A stretch of 64,000 nucleotides of DNA from an uncultured bacterium (lineage in GTDB: Bacteria; Chlamydiota; Chlamydiia; Chlamydiales; SM23-39), in assembly GCA_963716985.1 (NCBI GenBank), contig OY970323.1, positions 1,024,001 to 1,088,000 on the forward strand. Direction: 5' to 3'. The position numbers and the translations under genes were made by a program. Position 1 is the first letter of the stretch; every line of letters starts with the position of its first letter. The notes beneath the pieces were generated by a model. It ran no database searches, was not told where the DNA came from, and worked only from the letters and a program-made list of their open reading frames with translations. Positions 16,477-55,695 of the stretch are shown one piece after another.

Positions 16477-17590
16477 CTGATCCTTATACACAAGTCAACA
16501 TCCACAACCTAAAAGCGCTCCCATTAACATGTCTTGCAATCGTTTATAACCCTTCCAAATTGTTTGCCACCCAGGCTCCCCATCTGATTTGCGCCCTATA
16601 AAACCCCCCATACGAGCCAGAGAACGCCAGAAATCTTTCACCGTTTTCAATTTCACCATCAGATGCCTTTCTATGAGCGTAATCCAAGGCTTGGGCACCT
16701 TTTCCTCGACCGGTGTTTCCGGAGACAACCGACATCGTTCTCTCATCGCTAAAAGTTGCGTTGCTATCACCCCAATCATTCCAAATAGTGCAAGAATTCG
16801 GCTCGCCTGTTTAAGCTGATTATCTTCGATTCGAAAGCCCGTTTTGACCGCCTTATGATAATCCTCTATAAGCCAGCGTCGGCGGTAGATTCTGACGATT
16901 CTTAGGGAGTCTTCTTGATTGTTGACAGGAAGATTCGTAACCAATAGCCATTCTAACCTGGGCCTATCGGGACACCACACTCGAATATACGTCACTTCTT
17001 CACCTGCTGAACCACCATTTCCTGGAGGAAACAATTTCGCTTTGACCCAAGTTATTTCCAGTGTCACTTCACCACCAAATTCTTCGCCTTTTGCTTTCAC
17101 ATACAGCGTGGATGTACACTTGGCTGTTTGTTGACGAATCCATGAAAAAAGACGTGTCTTCTCGCCATCAATCTCGACTTTGCGATCATGTCGCGCCCGC
17201 ACTACACATTTCCACCCCAGCCTATTTGCATTATTCAAAAAATCATAAATATCATTGGCGCGATCGCCAACGCTCACCCAGTTCTCCTGGGGACGTCCCA
17301 TTTTCTCTAACGTCCTCAGCCACACCTCAGATTCTTTCGAATCACTCGCCGATTTTTCTTCGGGACGCACCCAAGCCTCCTGGTAACCAAGTCCCAAAAT
17401 TTCGGTTTCTTCAGATTCATGATATTTGGCGACCAGGCATGAGTGAAACATGAGTCCATTTCCGTTACTGTCCGCGGTTGGTCCAAGTCCATGTGTCCAT
17501 GGATGGGAATTGAACAAAAGCTCTGAACCATCTTGAATAAATAGAACAAGCTGTTCCGACCAGCGCGCCTTTTCTAAGACTTGATCGTAT
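16477..17590 (-). mobile_element. Truncated IS4-family (IS50/Tn5-like) element
   Basis: Transposase frame YDQVLEKARWSEQLVLFIQDGSEL...GDRAND...WLLVTN...YRRRWLIEDYHK...GGF.GRK.DG.PGW; terminal CTGATCCTTATACACAAGT at 16477-16495; N-terminus and other end missing. Confidence 0.9.
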
Positions 17591-19298
17591 GCAATGCTTC
17601 ATCAGCAGTGATGCGGGTTCGATAATCCACATCAAGCATTCTCTCGATAAGAGTTGCAAACGAGGCAGCTAGATCTGGTGGATCGGATTTTTCGCGGGCG
17701 ATATCCACGATTGATTGCCTTACAGTTCTCTGTTCATGGGGTGTTGGAGAAGGAACGGAACAACTTGGTGCAGGTGAAGCGGACTGCCCAGCTTGAGAAA
17801 ATGAAGCGCGATCTTCTTTGGGTTTCAAGTGAGGGGTAAAAAATTGTGCAATTCGCGACCAATTCTTCGATGTTATGAGAAAACTTTGATCGAAAGACTT
17901 TCCGACCATTTTTTGCATTTCAGCAAGCTGGTCGCTATCTATTTGTTCCCGACTTGGCGGTGAGTGATCTTGTTTTGCACTTAGCTGTTGGTACTTCAAA
18001 AATGATTTTAAGTTCTTCAAAAAATCTGCTGAATAAAATGGCAATGAATAAAGTTCAGCAAGATTTTGGCCAAGAGACCAAATATCAATTGCTGTTGTAA
18101 TTTCAGGAATTGGTTCCTTTGAATCAACGTAGGCGTTTCCCCATAAAATGACTTCGGGGGCTCGCTCGAACATGCGTTGCACCTCGCTAATGACCGGAGC
18201 TGTTCCCTCTTTAAATGAAATACTCCAATCAATTAGATGAACCCTTAGGACTTTCTGGCCTTTTTTTTGTTTTATCATAAGATTGGAATCACGAACATCG
18301 GCATGAACTATCCCAAGCCTATGAATCACAGACAAAGCATTTAAGCATTGTTTTGTAATTTCAAAAAAATCTTTGAGAGGAAGTATTTGCCTAGAACGAG
18401 CCAATTTTAAAATATGCTCTATTAAGGAAACTCCATAATAGGGAGATACATAACCGATAACCGATGACTCTGGTTTATACACTCCTAGAAGTTTTGGTAA
18501 CCCATGCTTTCGATACTCTTTTGTTATTTGCATGCGTGATATTTCTTCTGCAGCCACATTAGGACGGCTAAGGATTTTGACTACAACGTCTTTGAGTTTT
18601 CCTTTTTGTTCAAGCTGTATTTTGTAAACCCTGCCGTCCGATCCACATCCAATAGGTGGTTCTGTAAGCTCAAGTTTCGTAAAAACGGGGATCTCTCTTT
18701 TTTGGACCTCTTCCACACTCACTTCCATTGAATCGTCAGTTTTCTCTGAGGGAGGCAAGTTTTCAACTTTTCTGGTTGGTGTGGAATTTATGAAAATGGC
18801 CCTTCTTTGATAACGGATGAAGCAGCAAGCGGAGATCGAAAGCATGCTAAAGGAAAAAAATGTTATGCATTCAATTGTTTTCAGGTGAGATAAGAAATTT
18901 CTTACAATGCGATTATAGAAGGCCCATAGGTTCGGAACATTTGGGGGTATTGGGGGTATAGGAGGGTCGGGTGGTTGCGGTATACCTTTCCATAAATAAA
19001 TTCCTGCTACAACCACCGACACAGCAAAAATAAGCCAGGGCAATTTTGGGGCGGATTCCGATTTTTGAGGAGATGTTCGAGTGGCAAATTGATTTGGGTC
19101 GGAAATTTTTCTAAGTCCTATTGCAACACTGGCAACGCACAGAACAATGATAAAAGGTACAAAAATAGCAATACGATAAGCAAGAAGGGACCAGGAAGAG
19201 AGTTTTTTGGGGGACCAGATAGAATTTTTTGTTCGTTGAAGGTAGCTCTCTCTTGCATGGTAATGTGATGGACTGAATCGAGGCGATATTCTCATCAT
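17574..19298 (-). CDS. Membrane-anchored eukaryote-like Ser/Thr protein kinase (3' end replaced by IS sequence)
   Basis: Three hydrophobic segments and Pro-rich linker, then IGCGSDG.VY, VVKIL, HADVRDSN, IDWS, RAPEV, DIWSLG, RITADEAL; stop codon lies within IS DNA. Confidence 0.9.
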   Translation of the reverse strand: MMRISPRFSPSHYHARESYLQRTKNSIWSPKKLSSWSLLAYRIAIFVPFIIVLCVASVAIGLRKISDPNQFATRTSPQKSESAPKLPWLIFAVSVVVAGIYLWKGIPQPPDPPIPPIPPNVPNLWAFYNRIVRNFLSHLKTIECITFFSFSMLSISACCFIRYQRRAIFINSTPTRKVENLPPSEKTDDSMEVSVEEVQKREIPVFTKLELTEPPIGCGSDGRVYKIQLEQKGKLKDVVVKILSRPNVAAEEISRMQITKEYRKHGLPKLLGVYKPESSVIGYVSPYYGVSLIEHILKLARSRQILPLKDFFEITKQCLNALSVIHRLGIVHADVRDSNLMIKQKKGQKVLRVHLIDWSISFKEGTAPVISEVQRMFERAPEVILWGNAYVDSKEPIPEITTAIDIWSLGQNLAELYSLPFYSADFLKNLKSFLKYQQLSAKQDHSPPSREQIDSDQLAEMQKMVGKSFDQSFLITSKNWSRIAQFFTPHLKPKEDRASFSQAGQSASPAPSCSVPSPTPHEQRTVRQSIVDIAREKSDPPDLAASFATLIERMLDVDYRTRITADEALHTIKS

Positions 19299-19596
19299 TT
19301 TTTCTTTAACTTCCTTAGCTTAGAGCAAAAAATGCTGCTTAACTCCTGACTTCGGCTGATGCGGCGATAGCCTAAGTTTTTTTAATTTTAAACTAATTCA
19401 TTTCTATTTTTCCCATTGCAAGTTCTACCGGCGAATCTTTCAAGAAATTTTATCACGGAAGACAATTGCATGAAAGCTAAAAAAGCTTATGCAAAGATTA
19501 AAATAATTCAGCTTTGACGTAAGCAATGCTTTAAACCTATGCCTTTAAAGGAGAAAATTTTACACCCACCAAATAAAAATCATAATTCCTTCAAAA

Positions 19597-19632
19597 AATT
19601 CCTCGAAGAGTTTTTCTCTCTTCGAGGAATCT
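19597..19632. terminator. Hairpin terminator
   Basis: attcctcgaagag...ctcttcgaggaat perfect stem downstream of the 19669-20777 gene. Confidence 0.6.
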
Positions 19633-19668
19633 GCGTGCTTTTAAAGAACCATCAACGTTCATTGCAAA

Positions 19669-20777
19669 CTAAGAAGAAGTTACCCAATCAAGAATCGAAG
19701 AAAACGTAGACTTTTTAGGTTCTGGTTTGGGTGCACCACAACATTTTGCAAACAAAGCAACAATGAGCGCAGGCACGCCAACAAAGGTGCCGAGCAAAGC
19801 GATGATGGAAGGACCGGGGGGAGGGGGGGAGGATCTGTGTGGGTAATGACGGGGATAACAACGGGTTTTTGCGTTGAATTTTGAACAGGCGTTACAAAAA
19901 AGGAACTCCAGGGAATAGCGAACGTTACTATGGTAGAAAGTGCAACTGCACTAATAATAACGACCCAGGTCGGTGTAGAGGCTAGGTTCCCGATTTGAGA
20001 AATTCTACCCCAAAGAGACGAAGAAGTTTTCTTGGGCTCTTCTGGCTTGAGATCTGCGGGCTTGGGCTTTGCGGACGTGGAGGCCTTTGGATCTGCGGAC
20101 ATAGGGGGGGTGGAACTTTCGGGCTTGGGCTTTGCAGAAACGGCACTTTGAAATTGAACAGCATCCGCGTATCGAGCTGCTAATAGGTCTGCAGTCATCA
20201 CAGCAATCTTTTGAGGTGTTGATGCGGATGATTGTTCTTCTGTTATAAGAGAGCTTTGATGAAATTGCCCCAGTACTCTACCGGCATAAATTTTTAATTG
20301 AGATAAGACCTTCTCGTCATCAGAACATGCATTATAAACCCCATGACCACTTTCTGCAAAAGAGGCATGAAATTTGTCTGGATTCAAAATAATATTTCTT
20401 GCGACTTCTCCAATTTTGACCGAAATCGTTACTTCGGGTGGTGTGGCAGGAGTTGGTGTGGGAGGAGTTGGTGTGGGAGGAGTTGGTGTGGGAGGAATAA
20501 GAACCCAATATCCATTAGAAGGCCGTATCACAAAGATGTGATCCCTTTGTAGAAAACCTACCATCTTTTCATTTGCGGGAATGTTTTTTGGGCTTCCAAA
20601 GGCTTCATAATACTCTTGCGAGGGAAACTCAATTCGTAATAATTTTGCACCTTCGAATTGGTCGTAAGTGCATGGAGAATAGCTTGCGCCGTATGCTTGT
20701 TTGTTTTCTGGGACAGGGCTGCTAGCTGCAGGTGCAGATGCGCCGGGGGATGGGACTGTACTTGTAGACGTTGTCAT
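19669..20777 (-). CDS. Putative effector: X-family domain + Ser/Pro linker + TM-Pro-TM-CC anchor, frameshifted at poly-C (19816-19829)
   Basis: ORF as assembled stops at 19680; adding one C gives DPPPPPPGPSIIALLGTFVGVPALIVALFAKCC...VTSS* ending at 19669; AAGGAG RBS. Confidence 0.7.
20446..20497 (-). repeat. 15-bp tandem repeat (PTPPT), 3 copies
   Basis: ggaggagttggtgtg x3 here versus x2 in the paralogue at ~27052-27088. Confidence 0.85.
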
Positions 20778-21622
20778 AAACAACTCCTTGTTAATTGTTT
20801 AAAGATAAAAAACAGGATTGGTCAATTACTTTTTTTGGACATTGACCGAAGAAGAAAAATTTCTGAGGACAGATCGTCATGTTCAATGTTCTCAATAAAT
20901 TTTGTTGCAAAAATGTAGAACGTTTAGACTTAAATGTAAAAAGGTTTTTTTAAGAATATAAAAATTTTTTTTAAAGGATTGGGGAGGGTTTTTTATGTCA
21001 TTAAATATAAGTATCTTGCAGGCGTCCTTGCATGCAGTTGTCTCAAAAAGTATTTTTGATTTTCCTAAAATTAACACTCGGTGAATCAGCTCTCCTCCTT
21101 TCCGGGCCAATCATTTGCCTTCGCTGCATTCTTTGTTGAGTTGACCGGCAACGGGGATTCTTCTTTCAATGACCCTCCGAATCAACCAGCCCAATGCTTG
21201 AAACTTCATTGGGCGTTTCTGATAGCATTCTCAGGAATCTAAACGAGAAAAAAGTTCTCCACTTAACGGCTTGTCTCAAGATCTGCACTCTCACCGCCTT
21301 TCCGGAGCAATACATCTTGCGGGATCCTTCTTGCCGTTTCTTCCCAATGGTGTCTGTCGAAGCCATTCCGATGAAAATGCTCTTTTGTAGGTGAAAGTGG
21401 GTTTTTGATCGTAAGCTATTGAAATTGAGTCGTTAGTTTTTATTGCATGAGGAATATGCCGGGAAAATCGAAATGCCTCGAGATCTCTTTGCGGTTCTTT
21501 TTTTATAAGACTATGGTTTTTATTGTGTTAATTTAAATTTATAATTAAATTGAATAAAAACTTTATAAACATGATAATTAGCTTAGAATAATAAAGTGCT
21601 GTTTATTGCATGTGGAGGAGCC

Positions 21623-26835: not shown

Positions 26836-27369
26836 CTACGTTAGGGTGTCCTGAAGGGAGTCTTTATAAAGCTGTCTCATTACCTTACCGGCATAAATTT
26901 TTAATTGAGATAAGACCTTCTCGTCATCAGAACATGCATCATAAACCCCATGACCACTTTCTGCAAAAGAGGCATGAAATTTGTGTGGATTCAAAATAAT
27001 ATTTCTTGCGACTTCTCCAATTTTGACCGAAATCGTTACTTCGGGTGGTGTGGCAGGAGTTGGTGTGGGAGGAGTTGGTGTGGGAGGAATAAGAACCCAA
27101 TATCCATTAGAAGGCCGTATCACAAAGATGTGATCCCTTTGTAGAAAACCTACCATCTTTTCATTTGCGGGAATGTTTTTTGGGCTTCCAAAGGCTTCAT
27201 AATACTCTTGCGAGGGAAACTCAATTCGTAATAATTTTGCACCTTCGAATTGGTCGTAAGTGCATGGAGAATAGCTTGCGCCGTATGCTTGTTTGTTTTC
27301 TGGGACAGGGCTGCTAGCTGCAGGTGCAGATGCGCCGAGGGATGGGACTGTACTTGTAGACGTTGTCAT
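26836..27369 (-). CDS. X-family hypothetical protein, stand-alone copy 1
   Basis: Near-identical to the 5' part of 19669-20777, own short C-terminus, same RBS/upstream region. Confidence 0.75.
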   Translation of the reverse strand: MTTSTSTVPSLGASAPAASSPVPENKQAYGASYSPCTYDQFEGAKLLRIEFPSQEYYEAFGSPKNIPANEKMVGFLQRDHIFVIRPSNGYWVLIPPTPTPPTPTPATPPEVTISVKIGEVARNIILNPHKFHASFAESGHGVYDACSDDEKVLSQLKIYAGKVMRQLYKDSLQDTLT

Positions 27370-27557
27370 AAACAACTCCTTGTTAATTGTTTAAAGATAA
27401 AAAACAGGATTGGTCAACTGCTTTTTTAAGACATTGTCCGAAGAGCAGACACTCCTGTGTTTGGATCTTCATTTTCAAAGATCGCAATAAATTTCTTCGC
27501 GAAAGCATAGAGCGTTTAGGCTTAAATGTAAAGTCGAGAGTGGGTGGAATCCGAGGA

Positions 27558-27698: not shown

Positions 27699-28181
27699 CT
27701 ACTTTACGATCCTCTGAAGGGATTGTCGATAAAGTTGACTCATTACCTTACCGGCATAATCTTTTAATTGACGCAAGACCCGGCTGTCGTCAGCACTATT
27801 AACATCCACTGCATCCCGACGTGAAGAAGAGCTGCAGAATTGGGTTAGATTCAAGGTAACATATCTTGCGACATCTCCCATTTCGATCGCAATCGTTAAT
27901 TCTTTTTGGGATGTCGTGCCGGGAACTGGGGATGCTGTAAGGGGAACACAAGTCCAATACCCGGTCCTAGCGTGCACCACAAAGCAAAGTTCGTTAAGCG
28001 CCAAACCTACCATCTTTTCATTATATGTTTGCTCGGAAAGCTCAAAGCGTAATAATTTTGCGCCTGCGAATGGGTCGTGGATGGGAGGGTGTTTCTCGTC
28101 CCATGTTTGTGATTTTTGCCGGATGGGACTGCCGGCTGCAGGTGCTGATGCTCCAATGCTTGAAACTCCGACTGTAGACAT
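27699..28181 (-). CDS. X-family hypothetical protein, stand-alone copy 2 (diverged)
   Basis: Shares F.GAKLLR.E, NEKMVG, GYW, G.VAR...LN, DD..VL.QLK.YAGKVM.QLY with copy 1. Confidence 0.75.
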   Translation of the reverse strand: MSTVGVSSIGASAPAAGSPIRQKSQTWDEKHPPIHDPFAGAKLLRFELSEQTYNEKMVGLALNELCFVVHARTGYWTCVPLTASPVPGTTSQKELTIAIEMGDVARYVTLNLTQFCSSSSRRDAVDVNSADDSRVLRQLKDYAGKVMSQLYRQSLQRIVK

Positions 28182-28372
28182 GAACAACCCCTTGTTAATT
28201 GTTTAAAGGCATTTCCTGAAAAAACAAGATAGAGCAACTGCTTTTTTAAGACATTGTCCGAAGAGGAAAAACTTCTGAGGACGGATCTTCATTTTTAACG
28301 TTGTCAATAATTTTTTTTTCGTAAAAATGTAGAGCTTTGAGGCTTAAAAGTAAAGTCGAAAGCATGTGGAAT

Positions 28373-32259: not shown

Positions 32260-32745
32260 TTAACCAATGCCGCGTACGGATTCTTGAAAAGCACGGGCCG
32301 CAGCCGCTGCCGCTTGCTGGACTGCATCTTCGGCAGTTTTGGCAGAAGTGGCTCCCTGTCCTTGCTGGTTCGAGATCTTTGTGTTTAGGATTGTGGCGTC
32401 TCCATCGGCTCGGACTTTCTTAGGATCCGCATAGATTTTGGTCGCTGCTTGTCCGATCTCTGATCCGGTCTTTCCAATCGCTACTAAAAAGTCTTGCGCG
32501 GTTTTTCGGTCCGGAGTGTTGCAAACCCCATAGGCAAGCATGTTACAGCCCACAACCATCGTAAGCGTAACGGCAAGTGTGGTAACTGCCTGGAGGCGCG
32601 AGGCGTAAGCTGAGTCTCCATATTTTTCTGAGAGATTCGTTAACTCCTTATGCAGTTCGGCAGCCTGAAAGGTTTTTAGCTTGGCTGCGGACGCGTGCGC
32701 TTGGGAAAGAACTTCCCCAAGTTTATATTGGGATTCAATGGTCAT
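32260..32745 (-). CDS. Putative type III translocator (CopD/YopD-like position)
   Basis: One hydrophobic segment, Ala/Gln-rich amphipathic C-terminus, last gene of the lcrH operon. Confidence 0.55.
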   Translation of the reverse strand: MTIESQYKLGEVLSQAHASAAKLKTFQAAELHKELTNLSEKYGDSAYASRLQAVTTLAVTLTMVVGCNMLAYGVCNTPDRKTAQDFLVAIGKTGSEIGQAATKIYADPKKVRADGDATILNTKISNQQGQGATSAKTAEDAVQQAAAAAARAFQESVRGIG

Positions 32746-32763
32746 AACACTCCTCCATGATTT

Positions 32764-33780
32764 TTACGTTGGTTGGACGGCAAGTTTTTGACTTGTAATG
32801 TAACTTTGCAATGCATCTCTGCACGATTCGTTTAATGTACGCTGCGTGTCCGCAGTTTCTTGAACAGCGCGAGTTGTTTCATTCACACGATGCTTGTAAA
32901 GAGCCGATGCGCTTTCGGACTGTTTTCCCTTTTCTTGCATCTGATAGGTATGCGCAGTGTCGATACCGCTTTTGATGCCGAGAAAGACGGATGCGACATT
33001 GATCACAGTCGATACGCCGGAGAATAAAGTGGAGACTTCGGGCCCTAGCTGCCCAGTCCAAAACTGGGGATTGGACACTTGAATGGTCGTTGCCGAAACG
33101 CCGAGGCTGACCAGTCCTAAAAGCGTCGATCCGATCGAGACGCTTTTTTCTAAAAGAGAGGCGAGTTTGGCTCTGTTTTCTTCGTTGTCGGTCACAAGGC
33201 CGGCAAACCAGCTCCATCCCCCGGAAAGGGACATCCCCTGGTTGAAAAGAGCGCCGGATCCCGAGAGCAACAGAGCGTAGGTGAGATAAGCGGTGGCAGG
33301 TCCGGCCCCGGAGATAGTTGCGGCGGTAAAAAAGGTCATGGCCGATGTGAGAGTAGAGGCAATTTGTCGATAGCTGTCCCAATAGGAGGCCCTCTCTTGC
33401 TGTTCTACGAGCGCTCTTTGTTTTTTCGCCCACTCGAGGGCTAGCGTCTCGTGGCGTTTTGTCGCTTCTGTTAATTCTTCTGCTTGGCAGTGGTTCAAAC
33501 GGCCAAGCGTCTCCTCGGCCCCGATTTGGAGCTCCATCAGATCAAAGATCGGAGGATGGGTTTCTTTCTCGGATGATGGCGGGGGGAGTTTAGGGCGGGA
33601 AGGGGGGGAGGGCGATAGAGCATCGAGTGAAGAGGGTGGGGCAATTGCGAGCCGGTCTTGAAAAACGGGGCAGCCGGCCGGCGTTCCTAACATTGCGGGA
33701 GGCGGTAGTTTTTTTGAATTTTCAATGGCCTCTAGAAGCGGGCTTTTTTCTGCTTCGATGGCAGAAAGGGATCTAGGCAT
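32764..33780 (-). CDS. Putative type III translocator (CopB/YopB-like)
   Basis: Pro-rich N-terminus with P.L.PP-like chaperone motifs, coiled coil, long hydrophobic region; directly downstream of the chaperone. Confidence 0.65.
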   Translation of the reverse strand: MPRSLSAIEAEKSPLLEAIENSKKLPPPAMLGTPAGCPVFQDRLAIAPPSSLDALSPSPPSRPKLPPPSSEKETHPPIFDLMELQIGAEETLGRLNHCQAEELTEATKRHETLALEWAKKQRALVEQQERASYWDSYRQIASTLTSAMTFFTAATISGAGPATAYLTYALLLSGSGALFNQGMSLSGGWSWFAGLVTDNEENRAKLASLLEKSVSIGSTLLGLVSLGVSATTIQVSNPQFWTGQLGPEVSTLFSGVSTVINVASVFLGIKSGIDTAHTYQMQEKGKQSESASALYKHRVNETTRAVQETADTQRTLNESCRDALQSYITSQKLAVQPT

Positions 33781-34165
33781 GGGGCGGCTCCTCTTCTAAA
33801 TGGTTCTGGCTTTTTAATGCCTGGATTTTTTCCAGAAGATCTCTTGGAGGATGGCATTTTTCAGCAGCTAAGAGGGCTTTGAGCGCTTGATTTTTTTCAT
33901 TTTGGGAAAGTAGACACTCGGCTGCATGAAAATGGGGCAGGGGATTTTCAGGATCTAACGTGGCCGTGATGCTCCAGGCGGTGAGCGATTTTTTGTATTC
34001 GCCTTTGACTTGCCAAGAGGCGGCAAGGCCAAACCAGTGGCTCGCTCGATCGGCATCAAGCAGGACAAGGCAAGAAAAGGCTTGAATGGCTTCATCGACA
34101 TGCCCCTTTTCATAAAGGAGGCAGCTTGCCTGATAAAGATCCTGATTGTGCGGATGGATGTTCAT
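33773..34165 (-). CDS. lcrH: SycD/LcrH-family TPR type III chaperone
   Basis: LY..A..LY..G..EA...F..L..LD....W.GLAA..Q....Y..., P.P.FHAAEC. Confidence 0.88.
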   Translation of the reverse strand: MNIHPHNQDLYQASCLLYEKGHVDEAIQAFSCLVLLDADRASHWFGLAASWQVKGEYKKSLTAWSITATLDPENPLPHFHAAECLLSQNEKNQALKALLAAEKCHPPRDLLEKIQALKSQNHLEEEPPHA

Positions 34166-35193
34166 CTGCCCTGGCCCATGCGTTCCAAGACATGTCTCAA
34201 AAATTCCTGATAGGCTTTCAACGCTGCTAGCATGGCCTCATCGATTAAGCGCTGCTCGGATTGAATCCCTTGCAGTCCTGTCAACTCTTTGTTGGCGTCC
34301 TGCGGGCCCTGTTCGCACCGAGTTGTGACCACCTGTTCTAAGTCTTTTAACTCTTTTATGAGCTGTTTGATCTCCGCTTTCGACCGTTTGGTAAAATCAT
34401 AGCGCCCTTTTCCTTCTTTTTTGAGAAGTTCGCTCTGATCTTTTAATTCTTCAAGGGCGGCGCACTGTTTCAAACGGGAAGAAAAATCTTCTCTGGTTTT
34501 TGGCACAACGGTTTGATCAAAAGTGATGACGTAGGAGCCGGCCCCGGCGGAGCCAACCCCGTCGGATCCGGATCCGATGGATCTAGATCCACTGGCTAGG
34601 TCTGCTTTTGCTTTCAGGGCGGAAATGTCATAGCCATGATGTTGGAGCACAACTGCGAATTCTTCGTTCAAAACAAGGTCGGATTTTTCGACCCTCTCTT
34701 TTTTTGTCAAAGAAAGGTGTTCTTGGACGGCGGGGAGGGAGAAATCAATCGACTCGATGGCGGGCTCTTTTCCTCCGGGAGTTTCCAGTTTTGTTTTTTC
34801 TCTTTTCAATCTTTGCCGAAGCTCGATCAGGTAATCCAATTTGCCATAGATCTCTTTTGCTTTACGTATGATCTCCCCTTCTCTTTCGTGCAGCTGTTTT
34901 TGTTTTGGAGCGTAAAGAATATCCAGGACCTCGTAGACCATATTGTAGCCAAAGGGATGGGATGTGTGGGGGGAAAGGGAAGCAGATTCGATAGTGCCCG
35001 ACAAGGAGGCCGGAGGTGCCGCAGAGGGAATTTTCAGCGCGCCGGCAGCAGCTTGGTGAACTTTTAGCTGTTCGCGAGTTAAAGGGAGCGTTTCACGGCT
35101 CTCTTGCTGCAGTTGATTGTAGAAGGCGGCGATGACAGGATGCTCGTCAGTTTTTTTCTTCTTGCCTATGCTTGCGACTTTTCCATCGTCCAT
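34162..35193 (-). CDS. Hypothetical coiled-coil protein heading the translocon operon
   Basis: 343-aa ORF overlapping the lcrH start (ATGA). Confidence 0.7.
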   Translation of the reverse strand: MDDGKVASIGKKKKTDEHPVIAAFYNQLQQESRETLPLTREQLKVHQAAAGALKIPSAAPPASLSGTIESASLSPHTSHPFGYNMVYEVLDILYAPKQKQLHEREGEIIRKAKEIYGKLDYLIELRQRLKREKTKLETPGGKEPAIESIDFSLPAVQEHLSLTKKERVEKSDLVLNEEFAVVLQHHGYDISALKAKADLASGSRSIGSGSDGVGSAGAGSYVITFDQTVVPKTREDFSSRLKQCAALEELKDQSELLKKEGKGRYDFTKRSKAEIKQLIKELKDLEQVVTTRCEQGPQDANKELTGLQGIQSEQRLIDEAMLAALKAYQEFLRHVLERMGQGR

Positions 35194-46127: not shown

Positions 46128-47173
46128 ACGCGATGTGCGAGTTTATAAAGCGAAAAATCGCCTATGCTTTTAAGAACAAAGCAACTGGTCAAACTGTAAA
46201 GGCTCGTTCCCTGCGTTTACATTAAGTTTAATGCCGACAGTATGCGCCAGTAATTTTCTCCAAAATCTTGAAAATTGATGCCATAAATCTCGCGCCCATA
46301 CTTTTTCAATCCGAAATCTATCATTGAGCTGCCCTATAACTGTTTCAACCAGTCGCCGAGTCCCTACCAGCCATTTCAAAAATTTCTTCGGTCTTTCATC
46401 TTTCATATTTTCTCTCAGCGAAGTTTGCAAGTACAACCCTTGTTTTTTGAGCAACTCTTTCAATCCAGGTCGTATAAAACCTTTGTCTCCCAACAAAAGC
46501 CCTCCGATTTTTTCCACAATCTCAGGACACACATCGCGCTCATCAATGTTTGCCTTGGCGAATGTAGCTGCTGTCACCACCCCTATTGAACTGATGACAA
46601 CATGGCCTCGAAAACCATAAAAGTGCTCTTTTTTTGTAGCACAATATCCATATGCAGCGTCGCCCTTGAAATTTTTGCTAAAGTGAGCTCTGGCAAATTT
46701 GCAAACTGGAATAGGAAGCCCGTCTATTATGTGCAATGAATCAGAAAGAGCATGTAGGTCAGTTGCTAAACTCTCTTGTAACAATCGCTTTACTACATGA
46801 AGGTTGGCCGCTTGCCTGACAAAATTCGAACGTGCAGGAATATTTGGAAAGAAATGCAACCAGTGCCTTTTGAAATATTCCCAAATGGTTTTGTCACGGT
46901 CCATTCCAAAAAATTCTCCAACGACCTCCATCGTAATAACCTCGCTGTCTTTCAATCTAGGCGAGGGACCTCTTTGACGAAATTTCTCGTCTGCAAGAAC
47001 CTTCTTCATCTCATCATCTATCAAACAAAAGGTGGTTATGATAAAATCATCAATCGACATGTCCTGAACTCCTGTTGTTGTTTTGTCGCAAAACAGTGTG
47101 CAGTAAGGACTTGTCATTTTTCAATTATTTTTTTACGTGTGATTTTTTGCTTTGAAAAACTCGCACATCGCGT
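46128..47173 (-). mobile_element. IS982-family element, copy 2 (inverted relative to copy 1)
   Basis: Same IRs and identical transposase translation; 7-bp TSD GATATTA. Confidence 0.95.
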
Positions 47174-47217: not shown

Positions 47218-47634
47218 TTAATTTTTCTCTTCTTTTTCCAATGCCTTCAGAGGCCGTATTTCCAGATGGGATTCTGAAAGCAGCACTCTTTCTCCGTCTA
47301 CCTCGACGAGGTATAATAAAGATTTAGAGCTTAAAACTCTTTTTTCGATAATTTTGATCTTCTTTTGCTCATTGATCTCTTTTTCTCTAGAGCGCATGAG
47401 ACGCTTGAGGGCCCAAACAGTCAGAATCAAAAGGCCGACGAGCAATCCAAGCGAGAGCAGCATGCGTCTGAAATAATGGGGAAAGGGAGAGACGAGCGGG
47501 GCATTCTCTTGGTTCTCCATAATATTCTGGACGACAAGAGAGCTCTCTTTTTCTTGAATGGTCGCATCTTTTGCAGGCTCTGCTCCCAATAACATGGAAG
47601 ACAGGCAGAAAAACAGCACGCAAAACTTTTTCAT
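47218..47634 (-). CDS. FliO-like protein
   Basis: Signal peptide, TM, then IKIIEKR.LS.KS.LYLVEV.G..VLL.ES. Confidence 0.75.
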   Translation of the reverse strand: MKKFCVLFFCLSSMLLGAEPAKDATIQEKESSLVVQNIMENQENAPLVSPFPHYFRRMLLSLGLLVGLLILTVWALKRLMRSREKEINEQKKIKIIEKRVLSSKSLLYLVEVDGERVLLSESHLEIRPLKALEKEEKN

Positions 47635-47829: not shown

Positions 47830-48552
47830 TTAGCGTTGTTTTGCCGTCGCGGCACTGGTTGGCGCTGTGGCATTGGCAGGGGCGCAAGTGTTGTACACTG
47901 CGGCAGTAAGTTTATTTAACTGAACCCCCATTTTCTTTAGTTCAGCAACAACAGCAGGATCATTCAAACCTTCTGCCTTCGGGGACGCGAAGCGCTGTTT
48001 CACGCAATCGGGTATCCATCCTGGGAATTTTTCGGCAACAAAGATCCAAGCCGAGTGGATTTTCGTAATAATGGGCGCTCCTATTGCGCTTTTAGCCAGT
48101 TTTTCCCAGTAGGTGCCCACCCCGTTGGTGATTTTTACAATTTTTTCGGCAAACTGGTTTGGATACAGACATCCCAAAAGGGCGAGCGATGCGAGGGCCG
48201 GAATGACAAAGAAGGGTTTGTAGGAGGTCGGTGTCCAAGACCTGCGAGCGAGGAGGTGGTTCTGTTGGGCCTGTTTATTTGAAGACCGAATCCACATATT
48301 GACAGGCTTTGCAATGGCATTGTTATAGATTAATGCAAGAGCATTTTTTGCAAAGGAGGTGAAAAAGTCGAGCATCCAAGCACCGACTTTTGCTCCCGTT
48401 CTTACGAATGGATCGTGAATATCCTTTGTTTGTTCTGCCAGGTTTGTTACTTCATGGAGGCCCCAAGACATGCAGGTGAGTTCTTTTTTTAAGGCGACAT
48501 CGGGACGATAGTAAGGATTGAAAAACGAATTATTGAGGATGGATAAAACCAT
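47830..48552 (-). CDS. Array paralogue A (diverged)
   Basis: NNSFFNPYYRP.V.LK, GLH..TN, AL.YN, SW.PTSYK, TM. Confidence 0.75.
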   Translation of the reverse strand: MVLSILNNSFFNPYYRPDVALKKELTCMSWGLHEVTNLAEQTKDIHDPFVRTGAKVGAWMLDFFTSFAKNALALIYNNAIAKPVNMWIRSSNKQAQQNHLLARRSWTPTSYKPFFVIPALASLALLGCLYPNQFAEKIVKITNGVGTYWEKLAKSAIGAPIITKIHSAWIFVAEKFPGWIPDCVKQRFASPKAEGLNDPAVVAELKKMGVQLNKLTAAVYNTCAPANATAPTSAATAKQR

Positions 48553-48758
48553 GAGAAAAACCCTTTTTTGTATTTTTTCAAACATTCTAATCCTTTTCAT
48601 CGGTTAAGTCAATAGAAGCTTTTCTGCAATTATTTAAAAAGTTTTTTGAATAGACTTTGTTTCAGGACATCCCTTTTTCTCAAAAATGTCTTTTGCAAGG
48701 GATCTTTTGGTTTGGATTTTTGAAAAGCACTCATGATTGGAGCCGGTTGTTTACCTTA

Positions 48759-48792: not shown

Positions 48793-48820
48793 TTGGTCTT
48801 TTGAAGATTCCCGTCCCTTA

Positions 48821-49609
48821 TCAGGAGGGAGGAGGGGGCGCGGGTTCAGGGGGTTTTTGTGGTTCTGGTGAAGAATCCCCCCCCTCGACAGGGGAGACGT
48901 TTCCTTTGGCCATGAGGATGTCGTCGGCAATTCTTGAGGTTATGAAGAAGGCGCGAGCTTTTTTTTCCCAGAGGGTGCCTGCAGTGAGTTGGTCATCATT
49001 TTTGATCAGAGCATGCAGTTTACGGCTAGGGCAGCAGCAAGCAAGAGAAATTGCCGCACCGCCTACGACTGTACCACCGATTGCTAGGGCTGCTTTTGTC
49101 CAACTCCGTGATGGAATTTCAGGTGAGATGTCGATGGGTTTTTGTGGTGTTGGTGGAACGATTTCTGGTGGTGTTGTTGGTTGGTCTGATGGTTTAGGTG
49201 TTTTGTCTATTGTTGGGAAAAAATATTTGTATCCAACGACAGCGATTGTGGCAAGAAGGAGAGCGTCAATTGCAAGTGCTCTGTAGGAAATAGGCTTCCA
49301 TGATTGTCGCGCTGCTTTGTCTTGTTCTCTGAGCACATGATTGGAAATTTGAATGAATTTGTTTCGGAGCGGCGCCAATGTAAGAATGTTGTACAAAAGT
49401 GCAAGTAGGCTGCAGGGGATCGCTGTGAAAAGGTCTGCCGCAAAAGCAGCTACTTTTGCCGCTGTGTTCCTGCCGTTCGTTTTTGCAAGGAAGTTTGTTC
49501 CAATATGCAATCCTAAGCGTATGCCGGCTTCTGCTTTCAAGGCAACGGCCGGGCGATAAAAAGGATTGAACCATGAATTATTGAATGGATTACTGATGGT
49601 TTTGACCAT
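48821..49609 (-). CDS. Array paralogue B
   Basis: Conserved ~130-aa N-block, TM1, Pro-rich linker, TM2-ACCC, unique tail. Confidence 0.8.
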   Translation of the reverse strand: MVKTISNPFNNSWFNPFYRPAVALKAEAGIRLGLHIGTNFLAKTNGRNTAAKVAAFAADLFTAIPCSLLALLYNILTLAPLRNKFIQISNHVLREQDKAARQSWKPISYRALAIDALLLATIAVVGYKYFFPTIDKTPKPSDQPTTPPEIVPPTPQKPIDISPEIPSRSWTKAALAIGGTVVGGAAISLACCCPSRKLHALIKNDDQLTAGTLWEKKARAFFITSRIADDILMAKGNVSPVEGGDSSPEPQKPPEPAPPPPS

Positions 49610-49641
49610 AAAAAAACCTCCGGCACTCATTTTGGTCATTG

Positions 49642-50322
49642 TTAATATGATGCTCTGGGAAAGAGAGCGGGGGCGGGAGAAGAATCGTGGGTATTTAGGC
49701 TATCCGCGAGATTCACCTTGTCCGCTTTAGTCCGTGCGCAGCTGGCGAAGCAAAGAAGAGAAGCCACAATGCTTGTGATTGTACCACCGATTATTAGGGG
49801 TGATAGGGCTGCTTTTTCCCATCTCCTTAATGGAATTTCAGGTGAGATGTCGATGATTTTTGGTGGTGGGGCGATTTCCGGTAGTTTTTCTGGTGGTTTA
49901 GGTGGTGTGATTATTGTTGGGAAAAAATATTTGTATCCGACGACAGCGATTGTTGCCAGAAGGACAGCGTCAATGGCAAGTGCTTTGTAGGAAGTCGGCT
50001 TCCATGATTTTCGAGCTGCTTTGTCTTGTTCTCTGAGCGCATTATTGAAAATTTGAATGAATTTGTTTCGGAGCGGCGACAATGTAAGAATGTTGTACAA
50101 AAGTGCAAGTACGTTGCAGGGGATTGCTGTGAAAAGGTCTGCCGCAAAGGCAGCTACTTTTGCCGCTGTGTTCCTGCCGTTCGTTTTTGCAAGGAAGTTT
50201 GTTCCAATATGCAATCCTAAGCGTATGCCGGCTTCTGCTTTCAAGGCAACGGCTGGGCGATAATAAGGATTGAACCATGAATTATTGAATGGATTACTGA
50301 TGGTTTTGAGTGGAAGCGGCAT
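49642..50322 (-). CDS. Array paralogue C
   Basis: Same N-block, PPKPPEKLPE linker, TM2-LCFASC, unique tail. Confidence 0.8.
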   Translation of the reverse strand: MPLPLKTISNPFNNSWFNPYYRPAVALKAEAGIRLGLHIGTNFLAKTNGRNTAAKVAAFAADLFTAIPCNVLALLYNILTLSPLRNKFIQIFNNALREQDKAARKSWKPTSYKALAIDAVLLATIAVVGYKYFFPTIITPPKPPEKLPEIAPPPKIIDISPEIPLRRWEKAALSPLIIGGTITSIVASLLCFASCARTKADKVNLADSLNTHDSSPAPALFPRASY

Positions 50323-51001: not shown

Positions 51002-51946
51002 TTATAAGCTATCAAGAGAAGGGGGGGATTTGATGGTGAGGGTTGCATTGAGGGCATCGCGGGCTTCGTCGGTAGCGGCAAGGAGATCGTAGGCGGCGAC
51101 TCTGATGGGATGGTCTGTGGTGAAGGAGCAGTCGTTGGCGCCTCTGATGATGGCTAGGGCGGCCTCTCTGCAGTTGCTGACGGTGATGGCGAAGTTTTTG
51201 AGGAACTGCTCGTCGTCGGTGCGCCTGCTGGCGGCGTCTCGGAAGGTTTGGGTGTATGATCTGAGGGCTTGGGCGCTTATTTTGAGGTCGTTGACTTTAC
51301 TGGGGTTATTGGCGATGGCTGTGAATGCCTTACGGGTCCTATTCTTAAAAGATTGTGTCCAAATGCTGCAACAGATCAAAGAAGCTACCACAATGCGTGT
51401 GATTGTGCTACCGATTGTTAGGAGTGATAGGGCTGCTTTTGTCCAGCTCCTTGATGGAATTGCATCAAGTGCAATGACTTTTGATAGTGTTGGTATGCTT
51501 GTCACCGGTGGCGTTGATAGGACCGGTTGGTTAAGTGTTGTGATTATTGTTGGGAAAAAATATTTGTATCCGACGACAGCGATTGTTGCAAGAAGGAGAG
51601 CATCAATTGCAAGTGCTTTGTAGGAAGTCGGCTTCCATGATTGTCTCGCTGCTTTGTCTTGCTCTTTGCGCACATAATTAGAAATTTGAATGAATTTGTT
51701 TCGGAGCGGCGACAATGTAAGAATGTTGTACAAAAGTGCAAGTATGTTGCAGGGGATCGCTGTGAAAAGGTCTGCCGCAAAAGCAGCTACTTTTGCCGCT
51801 GTGTTCCCGCCGTTCGTTTTTGCAAGGAAGTTTGTTCCAATATGCAATCCTAAGCGTATGCCGGCTTCTGCTTTCAAGGAAACGGCCGGGCGATAATAAG
51901 GATTGAACCATGAATTATTGAATGGATTACTGATGCTTTTGGCCAT
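51002..51946 (-). CDS. Array paralogue D
   Basis: Same N-block, different linker, TM2-ICC, ~120-aa helical unique tail. Confidence 0.8.
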   Translation of the reverse strand: MAKSISNPFNNSWFNPYYRPAVSLKAEAGIRLGLHIGTNFLAKTNGGNTAAKVAAFAADLFTAIPCNILALLYNILTLSPLRNKFIQISNYVRKEQDKAARQSWKPTSYKALAIDALLLATIAVVGYKYFFPTIITTLNQPVLSTPPVTSIPTLSKVIALDAIPSRSWTKAALSLLTIGSTITRIVVASLICCSIWTQSFKNRTRKAFTAIANNPSKVNDLKISAQALRSYTQTFRDAASRRTDDEQFLKNFAITVSNCREAALAIIRGANDCSFTTDHPIRVAAYDLLAATDEARDALNATLTIKSPPSLDSL

Positions 51947-52450: not shown

Positions 52451-53083
52451 TTAGGTGCTCTTCGGATCCTTAGAAGCTTCGGCTATAACGGCGACGCAAC
52501 AGAGGCAAGTACTCGCAACTGTCACAACGGCTGTGATTGTGCTACCGATTATAATGGCTGCTTTTGTCCAGCTCCTTGATGGAATTTCAGGTGAGATGTC
52601 GATGATTTTTGGTGGTGGGACGATTTCCCGTAGTTTTTCTGGTAGTTTTTCTGGTGGTTTAGGTGGTGTGATTATTGTTGGGAAAAAATATTTGTATCCG
52701 ACGACAGCGATTGTTGCAAGAAGGAGAGCATCAATTGCAAGTGCTTTGTAAGAAGTGGGCTTCCATGATTGTCTCGCTGCTTTGTCTTGCTCTTTGCGCA
52801 CATAATTAGAAATTTGAATGAATTTGTTTCGGAGCGGCGCCAATGTAAGAATGTTGTACAAAAGTGCAAGTAGGTTGCAGGGGATCGCTGTGAAAAGGTC
52901 TGCCGCAAAGGCAGCTACTTTTGCCGCTGTGTTCCTGCCATTTGCTTGTGCAAGGAAGTTTGTTCCAATATGCAATCCTAAGCGTATGCCGGCTTCTGCT
53001 TTCAAGGAAACGGCTGGGCGATAAAAAGGATTGAGCCATTGGTTATTGAATGGATTACTGATGCTTTTGAGTGGAAGCGTCAT
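52451..53083 (-). CDS. Array paralogue E
   Basis: Same N-block, linker with an extra 12-bp unit, TM2-CLCC, short tail. Confidence 0.8.
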   Translation of the reverse strand: MTLPLKSISNPFNNQWLNPFYRPAVSLKAEAGIRLGLHIGTNFLAQANGRNTAAKVAAFAADLFTAIPCNLLALLYNILTLAPLRNKFIQISNYVRKEQDKAARQSWKPTSYKALAIDALLLATIAVVGYKYFFPTIITPPKPPEKLPEKLREIVPPPKIIDISPEIPSRSWTKAAIIIGSTITAVVTVASTCLCCVAVIAEASKDPKST

Positions 53084-53403
53084 AAAAAATACCTCTTTTA
53101 TAGGTTTGGTTGTTTTTTTCCGCTAATTTTAGTCCATGACGAAGTTTTGATCAATGAAAATGATTATTTTTTTTTGAACATTCGTTAACGGTCGGATGAT
53201 ATTAGTAAAATTTTTATTTTTAGGAATTATTAGGCGCATCTGCATTTAAAGGAGCAGGTTTTTATGCTCTCTCGAAGAGATTGCATCTTGAGTATGGGTT
53301 GATAGAAACTATTTGGATGATTCAATAGATGGTCGGGTTTATGCGACCGACCATCTGAGATCTGTCCACTCTCTTTAAGTTTAAACCTGAACATCTTGGT
53401 CAG

Positions 53404-53601
53404 TTAACCTAAAAACGGCAGTTGAACCGCTCCGCACAATCAAAACTTTCGCGATTCTCCTCTAAAAATCAATGTTATTGCTCAAATTTATCCACTCACC
53501 TATTGGGTGGGCGTGAAAGTTCAAGATAGAATTTATTTCTGAGAGAGAAATTTACAATTTTCAGGTCATGCAGAGCGGTTCAACTGCCGTTTTTAGGTTA
53601 A
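53404..53601. mobile_element. MITE (~198 bp) with perfect 29-bp terminal inverted repeats
   Basis: ttaacctaaaaacggcagttgaaccgctc at the left, exact reverse complement at the right; no ORF. Confidence 0.8.
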
Positions 53602-54378
53602 AGAAGAAGGCTGGGACTGTTGCAGTGAGAGCCATTCTTTTTTCCACTCTTCCCACCTAGCGTTAAAATGCTCCGGATCCTTATTCTTAGCTACCTTACA
53701 CATAAAGCGGAAGAGTTTAGGATTCACTTTAGCAGGAGCGGTCTTTTCAATAGAGGGGAGGTTACCAATCCCTTCAACAGTAGTTTTTGATTTGAGTGAT
53801 TGATGCAGCGCAAGGATGGGAATCGCAAATAATGGACTATATTGTGCCCAATGGAGAGTCTTTCCCCAAGGTCCGATGTCATTTATTTTATCAACGACAG
53901 TAGAGTCCACAGCCCAGTGAGTTATTGTTGGCAGAGTCTCTGACGGTGGTTTTGTGGCGGAGACAAAATACTTAGGTCCGAGGGTTGCGATTGCCACGAC
54001 AGAAGCAAGAAGGAGGGCGTCAACGGCTAGTGCTTTATAAGAAGTGGGCTTCCAAGGGTTTTGCCCTTTTTGGGTTTTTTTATTTGAAATTTGCATGATT
54101 TTATTACGGATCGGTAGGACTGAAACGTTATAGAAAAGAGCAATCGCATTCCCGGAAATTGCCGTAAGGAGGTCCCCTACAAAGGCGCCAATTTTTGCTA
54201 TTGTATGGAGGAAGGGATTGGAAATGGTTTTTGTTTTTTCTAGCAGGTTGGTTCCGGCATGCAAGCCTAAGGAACGATATGCTTTTTGTGGGCAAACGTT
54301 CGTTTCATGAAAAAAAGGATTGAACCATGAATTATTGATATAAGGGTTGTGCAAAAGATGATTTATTATGGCGTTCAT
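53593..54378 (-). CDS. Array paralogue F (diverged; stop supplied by MITE)
   Basis: NNSWFNPF, LGLH.GTN.L.KT, AL.YN, WKPTSYKALA.DALLLA. Confidence 0.75.
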   Translation of the reverse strand: MNAIINHLLHNPYINNSWFNPFFHETNVCPQKAYRSLGLHAGTNLLEKTKTISNPFLHTIAKIGAFVGDLLTAISGNAIALFYNVSVLPIRNKIMQISNKKTQKGQNPWKPTSYKALAVDALLLASVVAIATLGPKYFVSATKPPSETLPTITHWAVDSTVVDKINDIGPWGKTLHWAQYSPLFAIPILALHQSLKSKTTVEGIGNLPSIEKTAPAKVNPKLFRFMCKVAKNKDPEHFNARWEEWKKEWLSLQQSQPSSLT

Positions 54379-54878
54379 GAGAATCTTTGGTTTTTTTAAT
54401 AAATTATAAGCCTAGAAAATACATTGTGTCAACAAAAGTGATTTTTTTAAAGTTTATTAATTTTTTTATTTTTTAAAAAAAATCATTTGTTTTAAAAAAT
54501 TTCGTGGATGAAGAGTTTGTTTGAGAAGGGAAAATTTAGGTAGCTTAAGGCCAATGGGGCCAAGGGGCAGGCTTCTTCATGTGATATGTGGGAATCTAAG
54601 ACCGGGTGTCCGGCTAATCTAGCTAATGACAGACGAGTCACCCTGCTTCCGGAATCGCAAAAATTAGAAACAAACTGCCCATTTTTTTTGAAGGACTTCG
54701 TGTATTTTGGACCTTATGTGGATGCCCTGTACATTTTCGTTCTGTATGCCAGTCGTTTGCAAGGGATTTTCTTCTGATTTCACTTAAACGATCTTCTTTG
54801 CTAACAAAGCTAGAATGGTTTTCTGAATCAAGGTCTATAGGGGAGTTTGGCTTTTAGTCCTATGCCGGGCGCGTCAAT

Positions 54879-54913
54879 AAAAAAAGGCCAGCTTAATAAA
54901 AGCTGGCCTTTTT
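54879..54913 (-). terminator. Intrinsic terminator
   Basis: aaaaaggccagct...agctggccttttt. Confidence 0.75.
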
Positions 54914-54939
54914 GCCATAAAGCCTAACTGCTAGTAGAC

Positions 54940-55695
54940 TTATTCACCAGTCTTTAGCTGGGGCTTCTTCCCATCAGGAGGCTTCGGAGCATCGGAAGTA
55001 ATGGAAGTACTGAGCATTACACGTTTCCCATGATGACAGCATTTTACTACACCATATATTGCTCCTATGAGAGCCAAGAGGCTGCCCGAGCCTTCACCTA
55101 TCATCATAGGAATGCTCGGCTTCGTAAGAATGCTTGGCATCGAGAACCAGGGTTGTTTTGGTGTAACGACTTTTGGTATTACAACTTTTGGTGTTACAAC
55201 TTTATCTGCTTCTTTGGGGATTGTTACTCGAAAAGGAAATACCCCATATTTGTAAGCAGAAAAGCCTGCAAGTGCAAGAACTGCAGCTGCAGCTACGCCA
55301 ATTTTTAGCGGCGACCAAACATATGTTTTATGTTTGCTGACTTGGCTAATCACTCTTCTTTCTACTGCAACGGCAAGATTGCCAACTGTCCAACGTGCCA
55401 TGTTCCCCACCGTGGCATCAAGAACTACAATCAAGGGCAGGGTCAGGGTAGCAAAAAGAGCTACTTTGTATGCAAGCGCAAGAGCTCCTTTGTCACCAGC
55501 TAGATGAAAAACAGACTTTGTTGTCTCAAAGCCAAAAGGAGAGACGTAATAGTCTGGCTTTTGCTTTGAAGGCACTGCTGTTTTGAGCAAAGCGTTCAAA
55601 GCGCTCGATGGTATTGAAACGATTGCTTTGCCAACGGATTTTGCGCCATTGACAACTGAATGAAAATTTACTGCTGCAACTGGACTTATACTCAT
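54940..55695 (-). CDS. Membrane protein with TM-linker-TM-KCC anchor (distant array member)
   Basis: WSPLK, TM1, (KVVTP)3-like linker, TM2 ending VKCC, charged tail. Confidence 0.7.
   Translation of the reverse strand: MSISPVAAVNFHSVVNGAKSVGKAIVSIPSSALNALLKTAVPSKQKPDYYVSPFGFETTKSVFHLAGDKGALALAYKVALFATLTLPLIVVLDATVGNMARWTVGNLAVAVERRVISQVSKHKTYVWSPLKIGVAAAAVLALAGFSAYKYGVFPFRVTIPKEADKVVTPKVVIPKVVTPKQPWFSMPSILTKPSIPMMIGEGSGSLLALIGAIYGVVKCCHHGKRVMLSTSITSDAPKPPDGKKPQLKTGE

Follow-up and report, generated by a model that had tools for sequence, protein, structure and literature searches.

What does it mean that several proteins encoded close together in a chlamydial genome, with unrelated domains attached, each carry a cluster of cysteines where a hydrophobic segment ends? 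The question is raised by a stretch of 64,000 nucleotides (hereafter the window), namely bases 1,024,001-1,088,000 of a genome that forms a single contig (2,067,739 bp, 44.4% G+C). A preliminary description of the window listed seven open reading frames (ORFs, named here by their first coordinate) and proposed that a short anchor, consisting of a transmembrane (TM) segment, a Pro-rich linker and a second TM segment followed at once by Cys residues, had been shuffled onto unrelated domains. Translations and hydropathy profiles place all seven Cys motifs as described, each at the C-terminus of the final hydrophobic segment and after a loop of 42-55 residues with a Pro content of 13-27% (lowest in 51002, at 13%). 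The history of these anchors, however, appears to be a different one, given that six of the seven ORFs are paralogs from two related families and that their resemblance reflects mostly common descent. What survives of the original proposal is that a membrane module has been reused with cargo of unrelated kinds; the unit itself is larger than supposed, and its sharing is largely paralogy. The window contains part of a lineage-specific, expanded and tandemly arrayed superfamily with a conserved membrane module, in which the cargo is diverse and partly of eukaryote type, and in which juxtamembrane Cys residues are enriched.

The conserved unit occupies approximately 150-200 N-terminal residues and consists of a leader, a hydrophobic helix (H1), a basic helix, a second hydrophobic helix (TM2), a loop and a third (TM3). 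The leader and H1, which lie upstream of the segment previously called TM1, were absent from the preliminary description, as were two members that have no Cys cluster (47830 and 53593), while the Pro-richness and the Cys residues that it treated as defining parts prove to be variable decorations. Each family possesses its own leader of about 45 residues, yet the plan is common to both: H1 runs on into the basic helix, TM2 follows about 50 residues after H1 (the cores of the two being some 30-35 residues apart and joined by the basic helix), and the order and H1-TM2-TM3 spacing are constant across members. Of the 19 members whose TM3 is clear, 18 have 25-82 residues between TM2 and TM3, and the exception, a member with an Rce1-like protease domain, has 6. 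This loop exceeds 40 residues in most members and is often Pro-rich. An AlphaFold2 model of 52451, built from a 31-row alignment (mean predicted local distance difference test score, pLDDT, 75; predicted template modelling score, pTM, 0.40), has coil at residues 1-42, a continuous helix at 52-105 (pLDDT about 90) in which H1 and the basic stretch are united, TM helices at 111-133 and 172-203 and, between these two, a disordered Pro-rich loop at 134-171. Asp and Asn residues, invariant in the alignment, recur every 7-9 positions along the long helix and give it a polar stripe. The module's hydrophobic segments have a hydrophobicity slightly below that found in polytopic membrane proteins (median 1.88 vs 2.01, p 0.007), every loop is net positive, and the H1-TM2 linker is strongly basic. 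No match to the module was found in Pfam, NCBIfam or the sequences of the PDB (profile A3 had 0 matches, and profile A2 one chance match at E 0.25).

The first of the two families, which we call NPW after its leader, is characterised by the stretches NSWFNP and GLHxGTNF, a polar-striped hydrophobic helix and SWKPTSYK. It includes the tandem paralogs 48821, 49642, 51002 and 52451 (76-83% protein identity); one family protein finds 21 matching places in its own genome, and the family profile yields 21 significant hits. The other family, group B, comprises 54940, the N-terminus of the kinase 17574 and eight further members elsewhere in the genome. When a profile was made of those eight alone, leaving out the kinase and 54940, the proteins that it placed directly after its own members were 54940 (E 3.8e-4), the kinase (7.7e-3) and three from NPW (4.4e-3, 5.4e-3 and 2.5e-2), compared with 0.45 for the best reversed-sequence decoy; all of these alignments are colinear. 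Two non-hydrophobic motifs add to this grouping: the leader motif WSPKKLSSWSLLAYRI (W/L-S/T-P-x-x-L...Y-R-I) occurs only in six group-B proteins and kinase 17574, and DATVGNMARWTVGN (D-x-T-x-G-N...R-x-T-x-G-N) only in six group-B proteins and 54940, in each case at the same positions in the proteins and with at most 0.05 occurrences expected by chance, although both patterns were written after the alignments had been seen. Across the families, 54940 and 48821 share a colinear phmmer match (E 2e-6) that extends over W-x-P, YKYxFP, the Pro-rich loop and the TM segment with its Cys pair. Started from the N-termini of four group-B proteins, an iterated profile search comes to rest at 30 gene calls, with no transporters or other membrane proteins among them. 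From these comparisons, 17574 and 54940 are probably members of group B, a common origin of NPW and group B has about even odds, and the similarity among the seven anchors is mostly inherited rather than separately acquired. The anchor of 19680 stands apart, since phmmer detects no homology between it and the module families, contrary to the earlier view that it shared its anchor with the others. In total the module is carried by 30 of 2030 gene calls (the output of a simple longest-ORF picker that covers 90% of the genome, and the basis of all genome-wide statistics given here), which correspond to about 29 loci. Even if its products were retained by the bacterium, this would be an uncharacterised family, making up about 1.5% of genes, that has no curated model.

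A sharp break in homology marks where the module ends. Among the four tandem genes, DNA identity is 92-100% along a stretch of about 400 nt that reaches from the leader to TM2, and it decreases in the loop and in TM3. Immediately behind the Cys codons, which are the last positions of the module that can still be aligned, all alignment is lost; the tails beyond (9, 34, 71 and 123 residues) are unrelated. An independent comparison places the boundary at the same structural point: g1622419 and g1392865, two sister proteins encoded elsewhere in the genome, share 61% identity from the leader to five residues past TM3 and are unrelated beyond. Searches of the intergenic gaps beside the family genes of the window with all family proteins (tblastn) recovered no remnants of lost tails. 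The alignments show that new combinations have arisen by duplication and recombination, with the breakpoint just behind TM3. Near-identical modules with unrelated tails are natural chimeras, and as such mark a functional boundary.

The tails themselves include a kinase, a ubiquitin-like domain, an Rce1-like protease, an unknown helical domain and various short extensions. In 17574, hydrophobic segments at residues 43-59, 86-102 and 145-161 are followed by a kinase domain (Pkinase, PF00069, 83 bits, cut-off 31.7). Among solved structures, the best relatives of this domain belong to the MAPK/CMGC kinases of eukaryotes (p38/JNK, HIPK and GSK3); we read the stretches VVVKIL, HADVRDSN, IDWS (in the place of DFG) and APE as its probable catalytic motifs. 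The group-B protein g1392865 (L028, genome positions 1392865-1393740), which has a C-x-C inside TM3, ends in a ubiquitin domain (PF00240, 42.2 bits against 25.4, E 7e-11) that aligns to ubiquitin repeats in PDB chains, while its sister g1622419 carries on the same module a different tail of about 350 residues. A further group-B member (L029, genome positions 276219-277193) joins the module to an Rce1-like intramembrane protease of the CPBP/CAAX type (PF02517). Rce1-like protease motifs (EELIFRF...H) were also seen by eye in P0023, a metagenomic homolog of NPW, and if that match holds, L029 and P0023 would represent two independent fusions to the same type of protease. Five members, as well as the remote homolog P0032, carry the helical domain, about 230 residues long, once or twice; the AlphaFold model of this domain (pLDDT 72, pTM 0.80) has no significant Foldseek match (best E 0.54), and its best VIA Z of 6.8 is within the noise for helical proteins. 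The kinase and ubiquitin-like members offer activities that can be tested.

The preliminary description had proposed a genome-wide check for enrichment of Cys pairs at TM ends, and such an enrichment is indeed found. Taking a fixed window of 15 residues at the C-terminal end of TM3 and counting two or more Cys as a cluster, 8 of the 19 members with a clear TM3 possess one, and 4 more have a single Cys, compared with 76 of 2164 hydrophobic segments (3.5%) in non-members. Adjacent Cys pairs at the C-terminal end of a hydrophobic segment occur in 12 proteins among all gene calls, 6 of which are encoded in the window, and Pro-rich linkers (at least 15% Pro) between TM segments are followed by two or more Cys at the end of the second TM segment in 6 of 27 cases, against 10 of 624 for other linkers. 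The clusters consist of two or three Cys where TM3 ends on the cargo side, and basic residues usually come next. It looks, from the sequences, as though the cluster had been acquired or retained more than once, in several superfamily lineages as well as in the 19680 anchor, which is unrelated. Where the Cys residues lie, the kinase and the ubiquitin-like domain are also found, and this side of TM3 must face a compartment that contains ATP, namely the bacterial cytoplasm or the host cytosol.

Taken as a whole, we favour, with a probability of roughly 0.55, the reading that this is a membrane-module superfamily with terminally reassorted cargo whose products would be exported and tethered to host membranes. 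Under this reading the module would act as an export and membrane-insertion cassette: the proteins would leave the bacterium by type III secretion, the cargo would then be tethered to a host-facing membrane (that of the inclusion or another host membrane) and exposed to the host cytosol, and the juxtamembrane Cys residues may be S-acylated by host enzymes, stabilising or sorting the anchor. We give secretion slightly better than an even chance, and consider host S-acylation doubtful; both suggestions draw indirect support from the eukaryote-type domains, the restricted distribution, the moderate hydrophobicity, the net-positive loops and the precedent of the Salmonella effectors SspH2 and SseI. 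A stronger version, which we regard as unlikely, would make the module a self-contained delivery cassette, in which leader and helices could carry any cargo through type III secretion into a host-facing membrane, acylation of the Cys by the host would lock or sort the anchor, and captured eukaryotic domains (kinase, ubiquitin-like, CAAX-type protease) would become tethered effectors by recombination just past the Cys codons. As to lifestyle, the genome encodes three NTT nucleotide transporters, one SctV-type export gate and an Hc1 histone-like protein. If the favoured reading is correct, one genome shows an intracellular bacterium in the course of building host-directed proteins, with an export-anchor module kept and its cargo swapped, and host S-acylation would extend from soluble effectors (SspH2, SseI, GobX and LpdA) to membrane-spanning ones.

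Several observations weigh against this reading. Among the 19 members whose TM3 is clear, 11 do without the Cys cluster, which is not a fixed feature of the family, and of 16 metagenomic NPW homologs examined by script only 5 have a clear TM3 and 1 of those 5 has a cluster (P0032, KNCC), to which inspection by eye adds a CGFC in P0035. The p-values for Cys enrichment (binomial, 1.2e-7 for 8/19 and 1.7e-4 for 5/16 when tandem paralogs are counted once) are generous, because both the Cys window and the motif were chosen after the pattern had been seen. Between NPW and group B, hhalign returns a probability of 6.8% over 14 columns, and with the NPW profile group B does not reach significance, so that the link between the families rests on the HMMER ranking, the shared architecture and the colinear match of 54940 to 48821. 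Inc proteins are defined by a bilobed domain, with two TM helices of 20-30 residues and a small loop, or by a single hydrophobic region of at least 40 residues (PMC3290821), and with TM2 and TM3 as far apart as they are in all members except one, the module does not have this form. Hydrophobic segments were called from Kyte-Doolittle windows in place of a trained predictor, which is crude, as is the ORF picker. Lastly, many bacteria possess Hanks kinases and CPBP proteases that are anchored in the membrane, and there is nothing unusual for a bacterium in a cytoplasmic kinase or protease domain held by an inner-membrane anchor. These last points lead to the main rival explanation, namely that the module proteins are ordinary inner-membrane proteins, with an anchor inserted by Sec/YidC, cytoplasmic domains, a periplasmic Pro-rich loop, and Cys residues that play no part in lipid attachment but are tolerated as hydrophobic residues or form a metal or redox site. 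The strongly basic H1-TM2 linker, as expected of a cytoplasmic loop, and the majority of members that do without a Cys cluster accord with such an arrangement. Nevertheless, a ubiquitin-family domain and a MAPK-like kinase have no obvious target inside a bacterium, all loops are net positive including the one that should be periplasmic, the Cys clusters are about tenfold enriched over other hydrophobic segments, and a large, tandem, species-restricted expansion with unrelated tails is poorly accounted for; we therefore hold this explanation to be rather unlikely.

A location in the envelope would give the Pro-rich loop a different role, spanning the periplasm in the manner of TonB, with the Cys residues disulfide-linked to the cysteine-rich outer-membrane complex of chlamydiae. 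TonB-type proteins combine an N-terminal TM segment and a Pro-rich spacer with a TonB domain at the C-terminus, disulfide cross-links are known from chlamydial envelopes, and KP/EP-rich loops such as KPPEKLPEKLREIVPPPK are, in our estimation, similar to TonB spacers. However, Pfam searches found no TonB or other periplasmic domain (in window ORFs at E <=0.1, and in 18 other members at E <=0.01), the Pro-rich part is here flanked by TM helices on both sides, and the Cys residues lie on the side of TM3 that bears an ATP-dependent kinase and a ubiquitin-like domain, neither of which should be periplasmic. The Pfam model of the OmcB N-domain also has no match in the genome, although this is a weak argument given that it has none in any control genome either, and overall an envelope role seems very improbable. 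It might finally be argued that the anchor is meaningless as a unit, such that, beyond paralogy, the kinase, 54940, 19680 and NPW resemble each other through convergence of low-complexity sequence and the Cys pairs are coincidental. The lack of homology for the 19680 anchor, the weak hhalign result and the post hoc nature of the pattern all lend themselves to this argument, as does the presence of Cys pairs at TM ends of unrelated proteins, such as the MlaE permease at 30395, which is one of the six in the window. Yet the leader and H1 motifs that tie the kinase and 54940 to group B are non-hydrophobic and lie at the same protein positions, decoys score far lower, the Cys enrichment survives the collapse of paralogs, and boundaries coincide in two independent pairs, which together make convergence quite improbable.

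How the favoured superfamily of exported, tethered proteins would relate to known systems can be considered by comparison with Incs. Like the module proteins, Incs are chlamydial, have paired hydrophobic helices and no Sec signal, are lineage-specific, form expanded tandem arrays and are poorly conserved in sequence; their C-terminal parts are believed to be exposed to the host cytosol. The present genome encodes SctV, an export gate of the type III system. The preliminary description had suggested a wide-loop, Inc-like cassette; the module does not have the classical bilobed arrangement with a short loop, and only a looser rule used for scanning, two hydropathy peaks within 40 residues (PMC3290821), is approached. 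The module differs further from Incs by its additional hydrophobic helix and leader upstream and by a sequence conserved across some 30 paralogs, and none of its proteins matches any Pfam Inc family.

Another parallel may be offered by the Salmonella effectors SspH2 and SseI. Their shared N-terminal domain has a conserved Cys that host enzymes S-palmitoylate and that determines membrane targeting (PMC4951486). That domain is soluble and bound to the membrane by its lipid alone, whereas the module has TM helices with the Cys residues at a TM end. Further effectors of Salmonella pathogenicity island 2 share this N-terminal translocation domain, and in both systems one N-terminal domain is reused on different C-terminal activities. 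In the four tandem genes, moreover, the Cys residues belong to the conserved part and not to the variable one; in host-S-acylated effectors of the SspH2, SseI, GobX and LpdA type, which bear a fatty acid thioester-linked to Cys, that residue likewise belongs to a conserved targeting part and lies outside the variable catalytic part. Terminal reassortment, in which an N-terminal secretion or targeting part becomes joined to unrelated C-termini, was reportedly described by Stavrinides, Ma and Guttman in 2006 for soluble effectors of plant and animal pathogens, and the sharp homology breaks after TM3 fit that process. Transmembrane effectors of type III and IV systems, for their part, have moderately hydrophobic TM segments, form a two-TM hairpin with both termini inside and insert into host membranes (PMC12981334). 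They resemble the module in their moderate hydrophobicity, yet the text of that 2026 review contains neither ‘palmitoyl’ nor ‘S-acyl’ and, in the passages considered, describes no shared module reused across cargoes. The preliminary description regarded the module as undescribed, and we concur: in the literature on Inc palmitoylation and on family expansions in environmental chlamydiae, as far as covered, we found no description of it or of Cys-clustered transmembrane effectors, nor of a mechanism of effector innovation by recombination behind Cys codons or a class of lipidated transmembrane effectors.

The superfamily is restricted in its distribution, a pattern common among genes that act in host interaction. 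An NPW protein found a match in 0 of 40 relatives, the NPW profile in 0 of 399 other genomes of the phylum (with at most 4 candidates scored per genome, and one genome left unscored), and the group-B profile in 0 of 150 genomes of the order. In a collection of 5.8 billion proteins the group-B profile matched only proteins of its own genome and two strain variants of one of them, g2012296, that differ in repeat number, and 54940 matched a single other protein, 96% identical. Among 1.84 billion representative proteins, the NPW profile matched 34, 18 of which do not come from this genome; ten of these 18 were looked up, and all are single-member metagenome clusters annotated as ‘hypothetical protein’. 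No related loci were found for the 53593 protein in genome contigs, or for P0032 in metagenome contigs. The lineage is an environmental chlamydia, and DNA near-identical to it is present in soil, peat and sediment metagenomes, solely as small contig pieces; no RNA run is listed among the sequencing runs that contain the region. Lineage-restricted expansions are known for chlamydial effectors and Incs (PMC3290821, PMC4209131).

Table 1 Location and main characteristics of the module and X-domain genes in the window
Feature	Position	Strand	Details
Ser/Thr kinase with N-terminal group-B module (residues ~1-162)	17574..19298	-	...SISACCFIRY; Cys158-159, codons 18822-18827
X-domain protein with C-terminal hairpin (TM, Pro-rich loop, TM with Cys pair), frame offset	19669..20783	-	Cys-Cys codons 19738-19743, in other frame
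X-domain-only paralog, ~first 165 residues of the 19680 gene nearly identical	26836..27375	-	phmmer E 3e-108; no hydrophobic segment
Divergent X-domain-only paralog	27699..28187	-	phmmer E 6e-27; no hydrophobic segment
NPW-family member, no clear TM3 or Cys cluster	47830..48600	-	Family profile E 1e-70
NPW tandem paralog, SLACCCPSR	48821..49639	-	Cys-Cys-Cys codons 49031-49039; 71-residue tail
NPW tandem paralog, LLCFASCAR	49642..50322	-	C-x3-C codons 49738-49752; 34-residue tail
NPW tandem paralog, SLICCSIW	51002..51946	-	Cys-Cys codons 51368-51373; 123-residue tail
NPW tandem paralog, TCLCCVAV	52451..53083	-	C-x-CC codons 52496-52507; 9-residue tail; AlphaFold2-modelled
NPW-family member, no clear TM3 or Cys cluster	53593..54378	-	Family search and profile
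Group-B-type module protein, VVKCCHHGKR	54940..55695	-	Cys-Cys codons 55036-55041; 31-residue tail

The gene at 19680 has a more complicated reading than its neighbours. The ORF at 19680-20783 ends in a different frame from that of its anchor, while three-frame translation of this strand reveals a second frame that contains SIIALLGTFVGVPALIVALFAKCCGAPKPEPKK and stays open until a stop at 19669-19671, supplying a clean TM helix, AKCCG and a basic tail. The offset between the frames lies in or beside runs of seven and six C (19816-19829) within the Pro-rich linker, and may represent a sequencing error, a pseudogene or a slipped-strand switch; the gene was kept unjoined in this analysis. No contig from four soil and peat metagenome runs spans the C-runs, one contig stopping at 19812. 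Contigs of two metagenome runs (X1 and X2) have a 15-nt in-frame deletion at 20448, in a PTPTP repeat of the X-domain gene, and the paralog 26836 likewise possesses one PTPTP repeat fewer than 19680. The two genes for which the X-domain had been reported to occur without an anchor (26836 and 27699) are confirmed as such by phmmer and hydropathy. In the search of 5.8 billion proteins the 19680 gene had no relatives outside its own genome, and the X-domain had no usable match in the protein atlas.

Elsewhere in the genome, a second array at positions 12546-21255 contains four long NPW genes with one or two copies of the helical domain each, and is flanked by a 54940-like group-B gene (11283-12296), mirroring the NPW array beside 54940 in the window. 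One NPW gene (1911738-1912679) is split into ORFs of 83 and 215 residues, and strain variants (P0038 and P0039) of a group-B gene at 2012296-2013309 differ in their number of Pro/Val-rich C-terminal repeats of about 23 residues. Adjacent to 17574 in the window, the segments 14957-16471 (-) and 16495-17517 (-) contain a second kinase gene, a paralog of 17574 (phmmer E 3e-48), adjoining a gene for a Tn5-like DDE transposase. The second kinase starts at the region of the catalytic loop (Pkinase profile positions 112-259), and its N-lobe, together with any anchor module, appears to have been lost at the transposase insertion.

Mobile elements are also found nearer to the NPW array. Two insertion sequence (IS) copies of 1046 bp, which encode a DDE_Tnp_1_3 transposase and are 100% identical, lie in inverted orientation at 35404-36449 (+) and 46128-47173 (-), flanking a 9.7-kb segment with radical SAM, TamB, Omp85 and SulP genes; the whole may form a composite element or be open to inversion. 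Between the second IS copy and the NPW array is a small ORF at 47218-47634 (-) with a FliO-family match (PF04347, E 2.9e-8). The most G+C-rich stretch of the window (51%) coincides with a run of four genes at 32260-35193 (-), in which a TPR protein of 130 residues lies between proteins that have no Pfam match; in size and type this protein is, we presume, comparable to class II type III chaperones.

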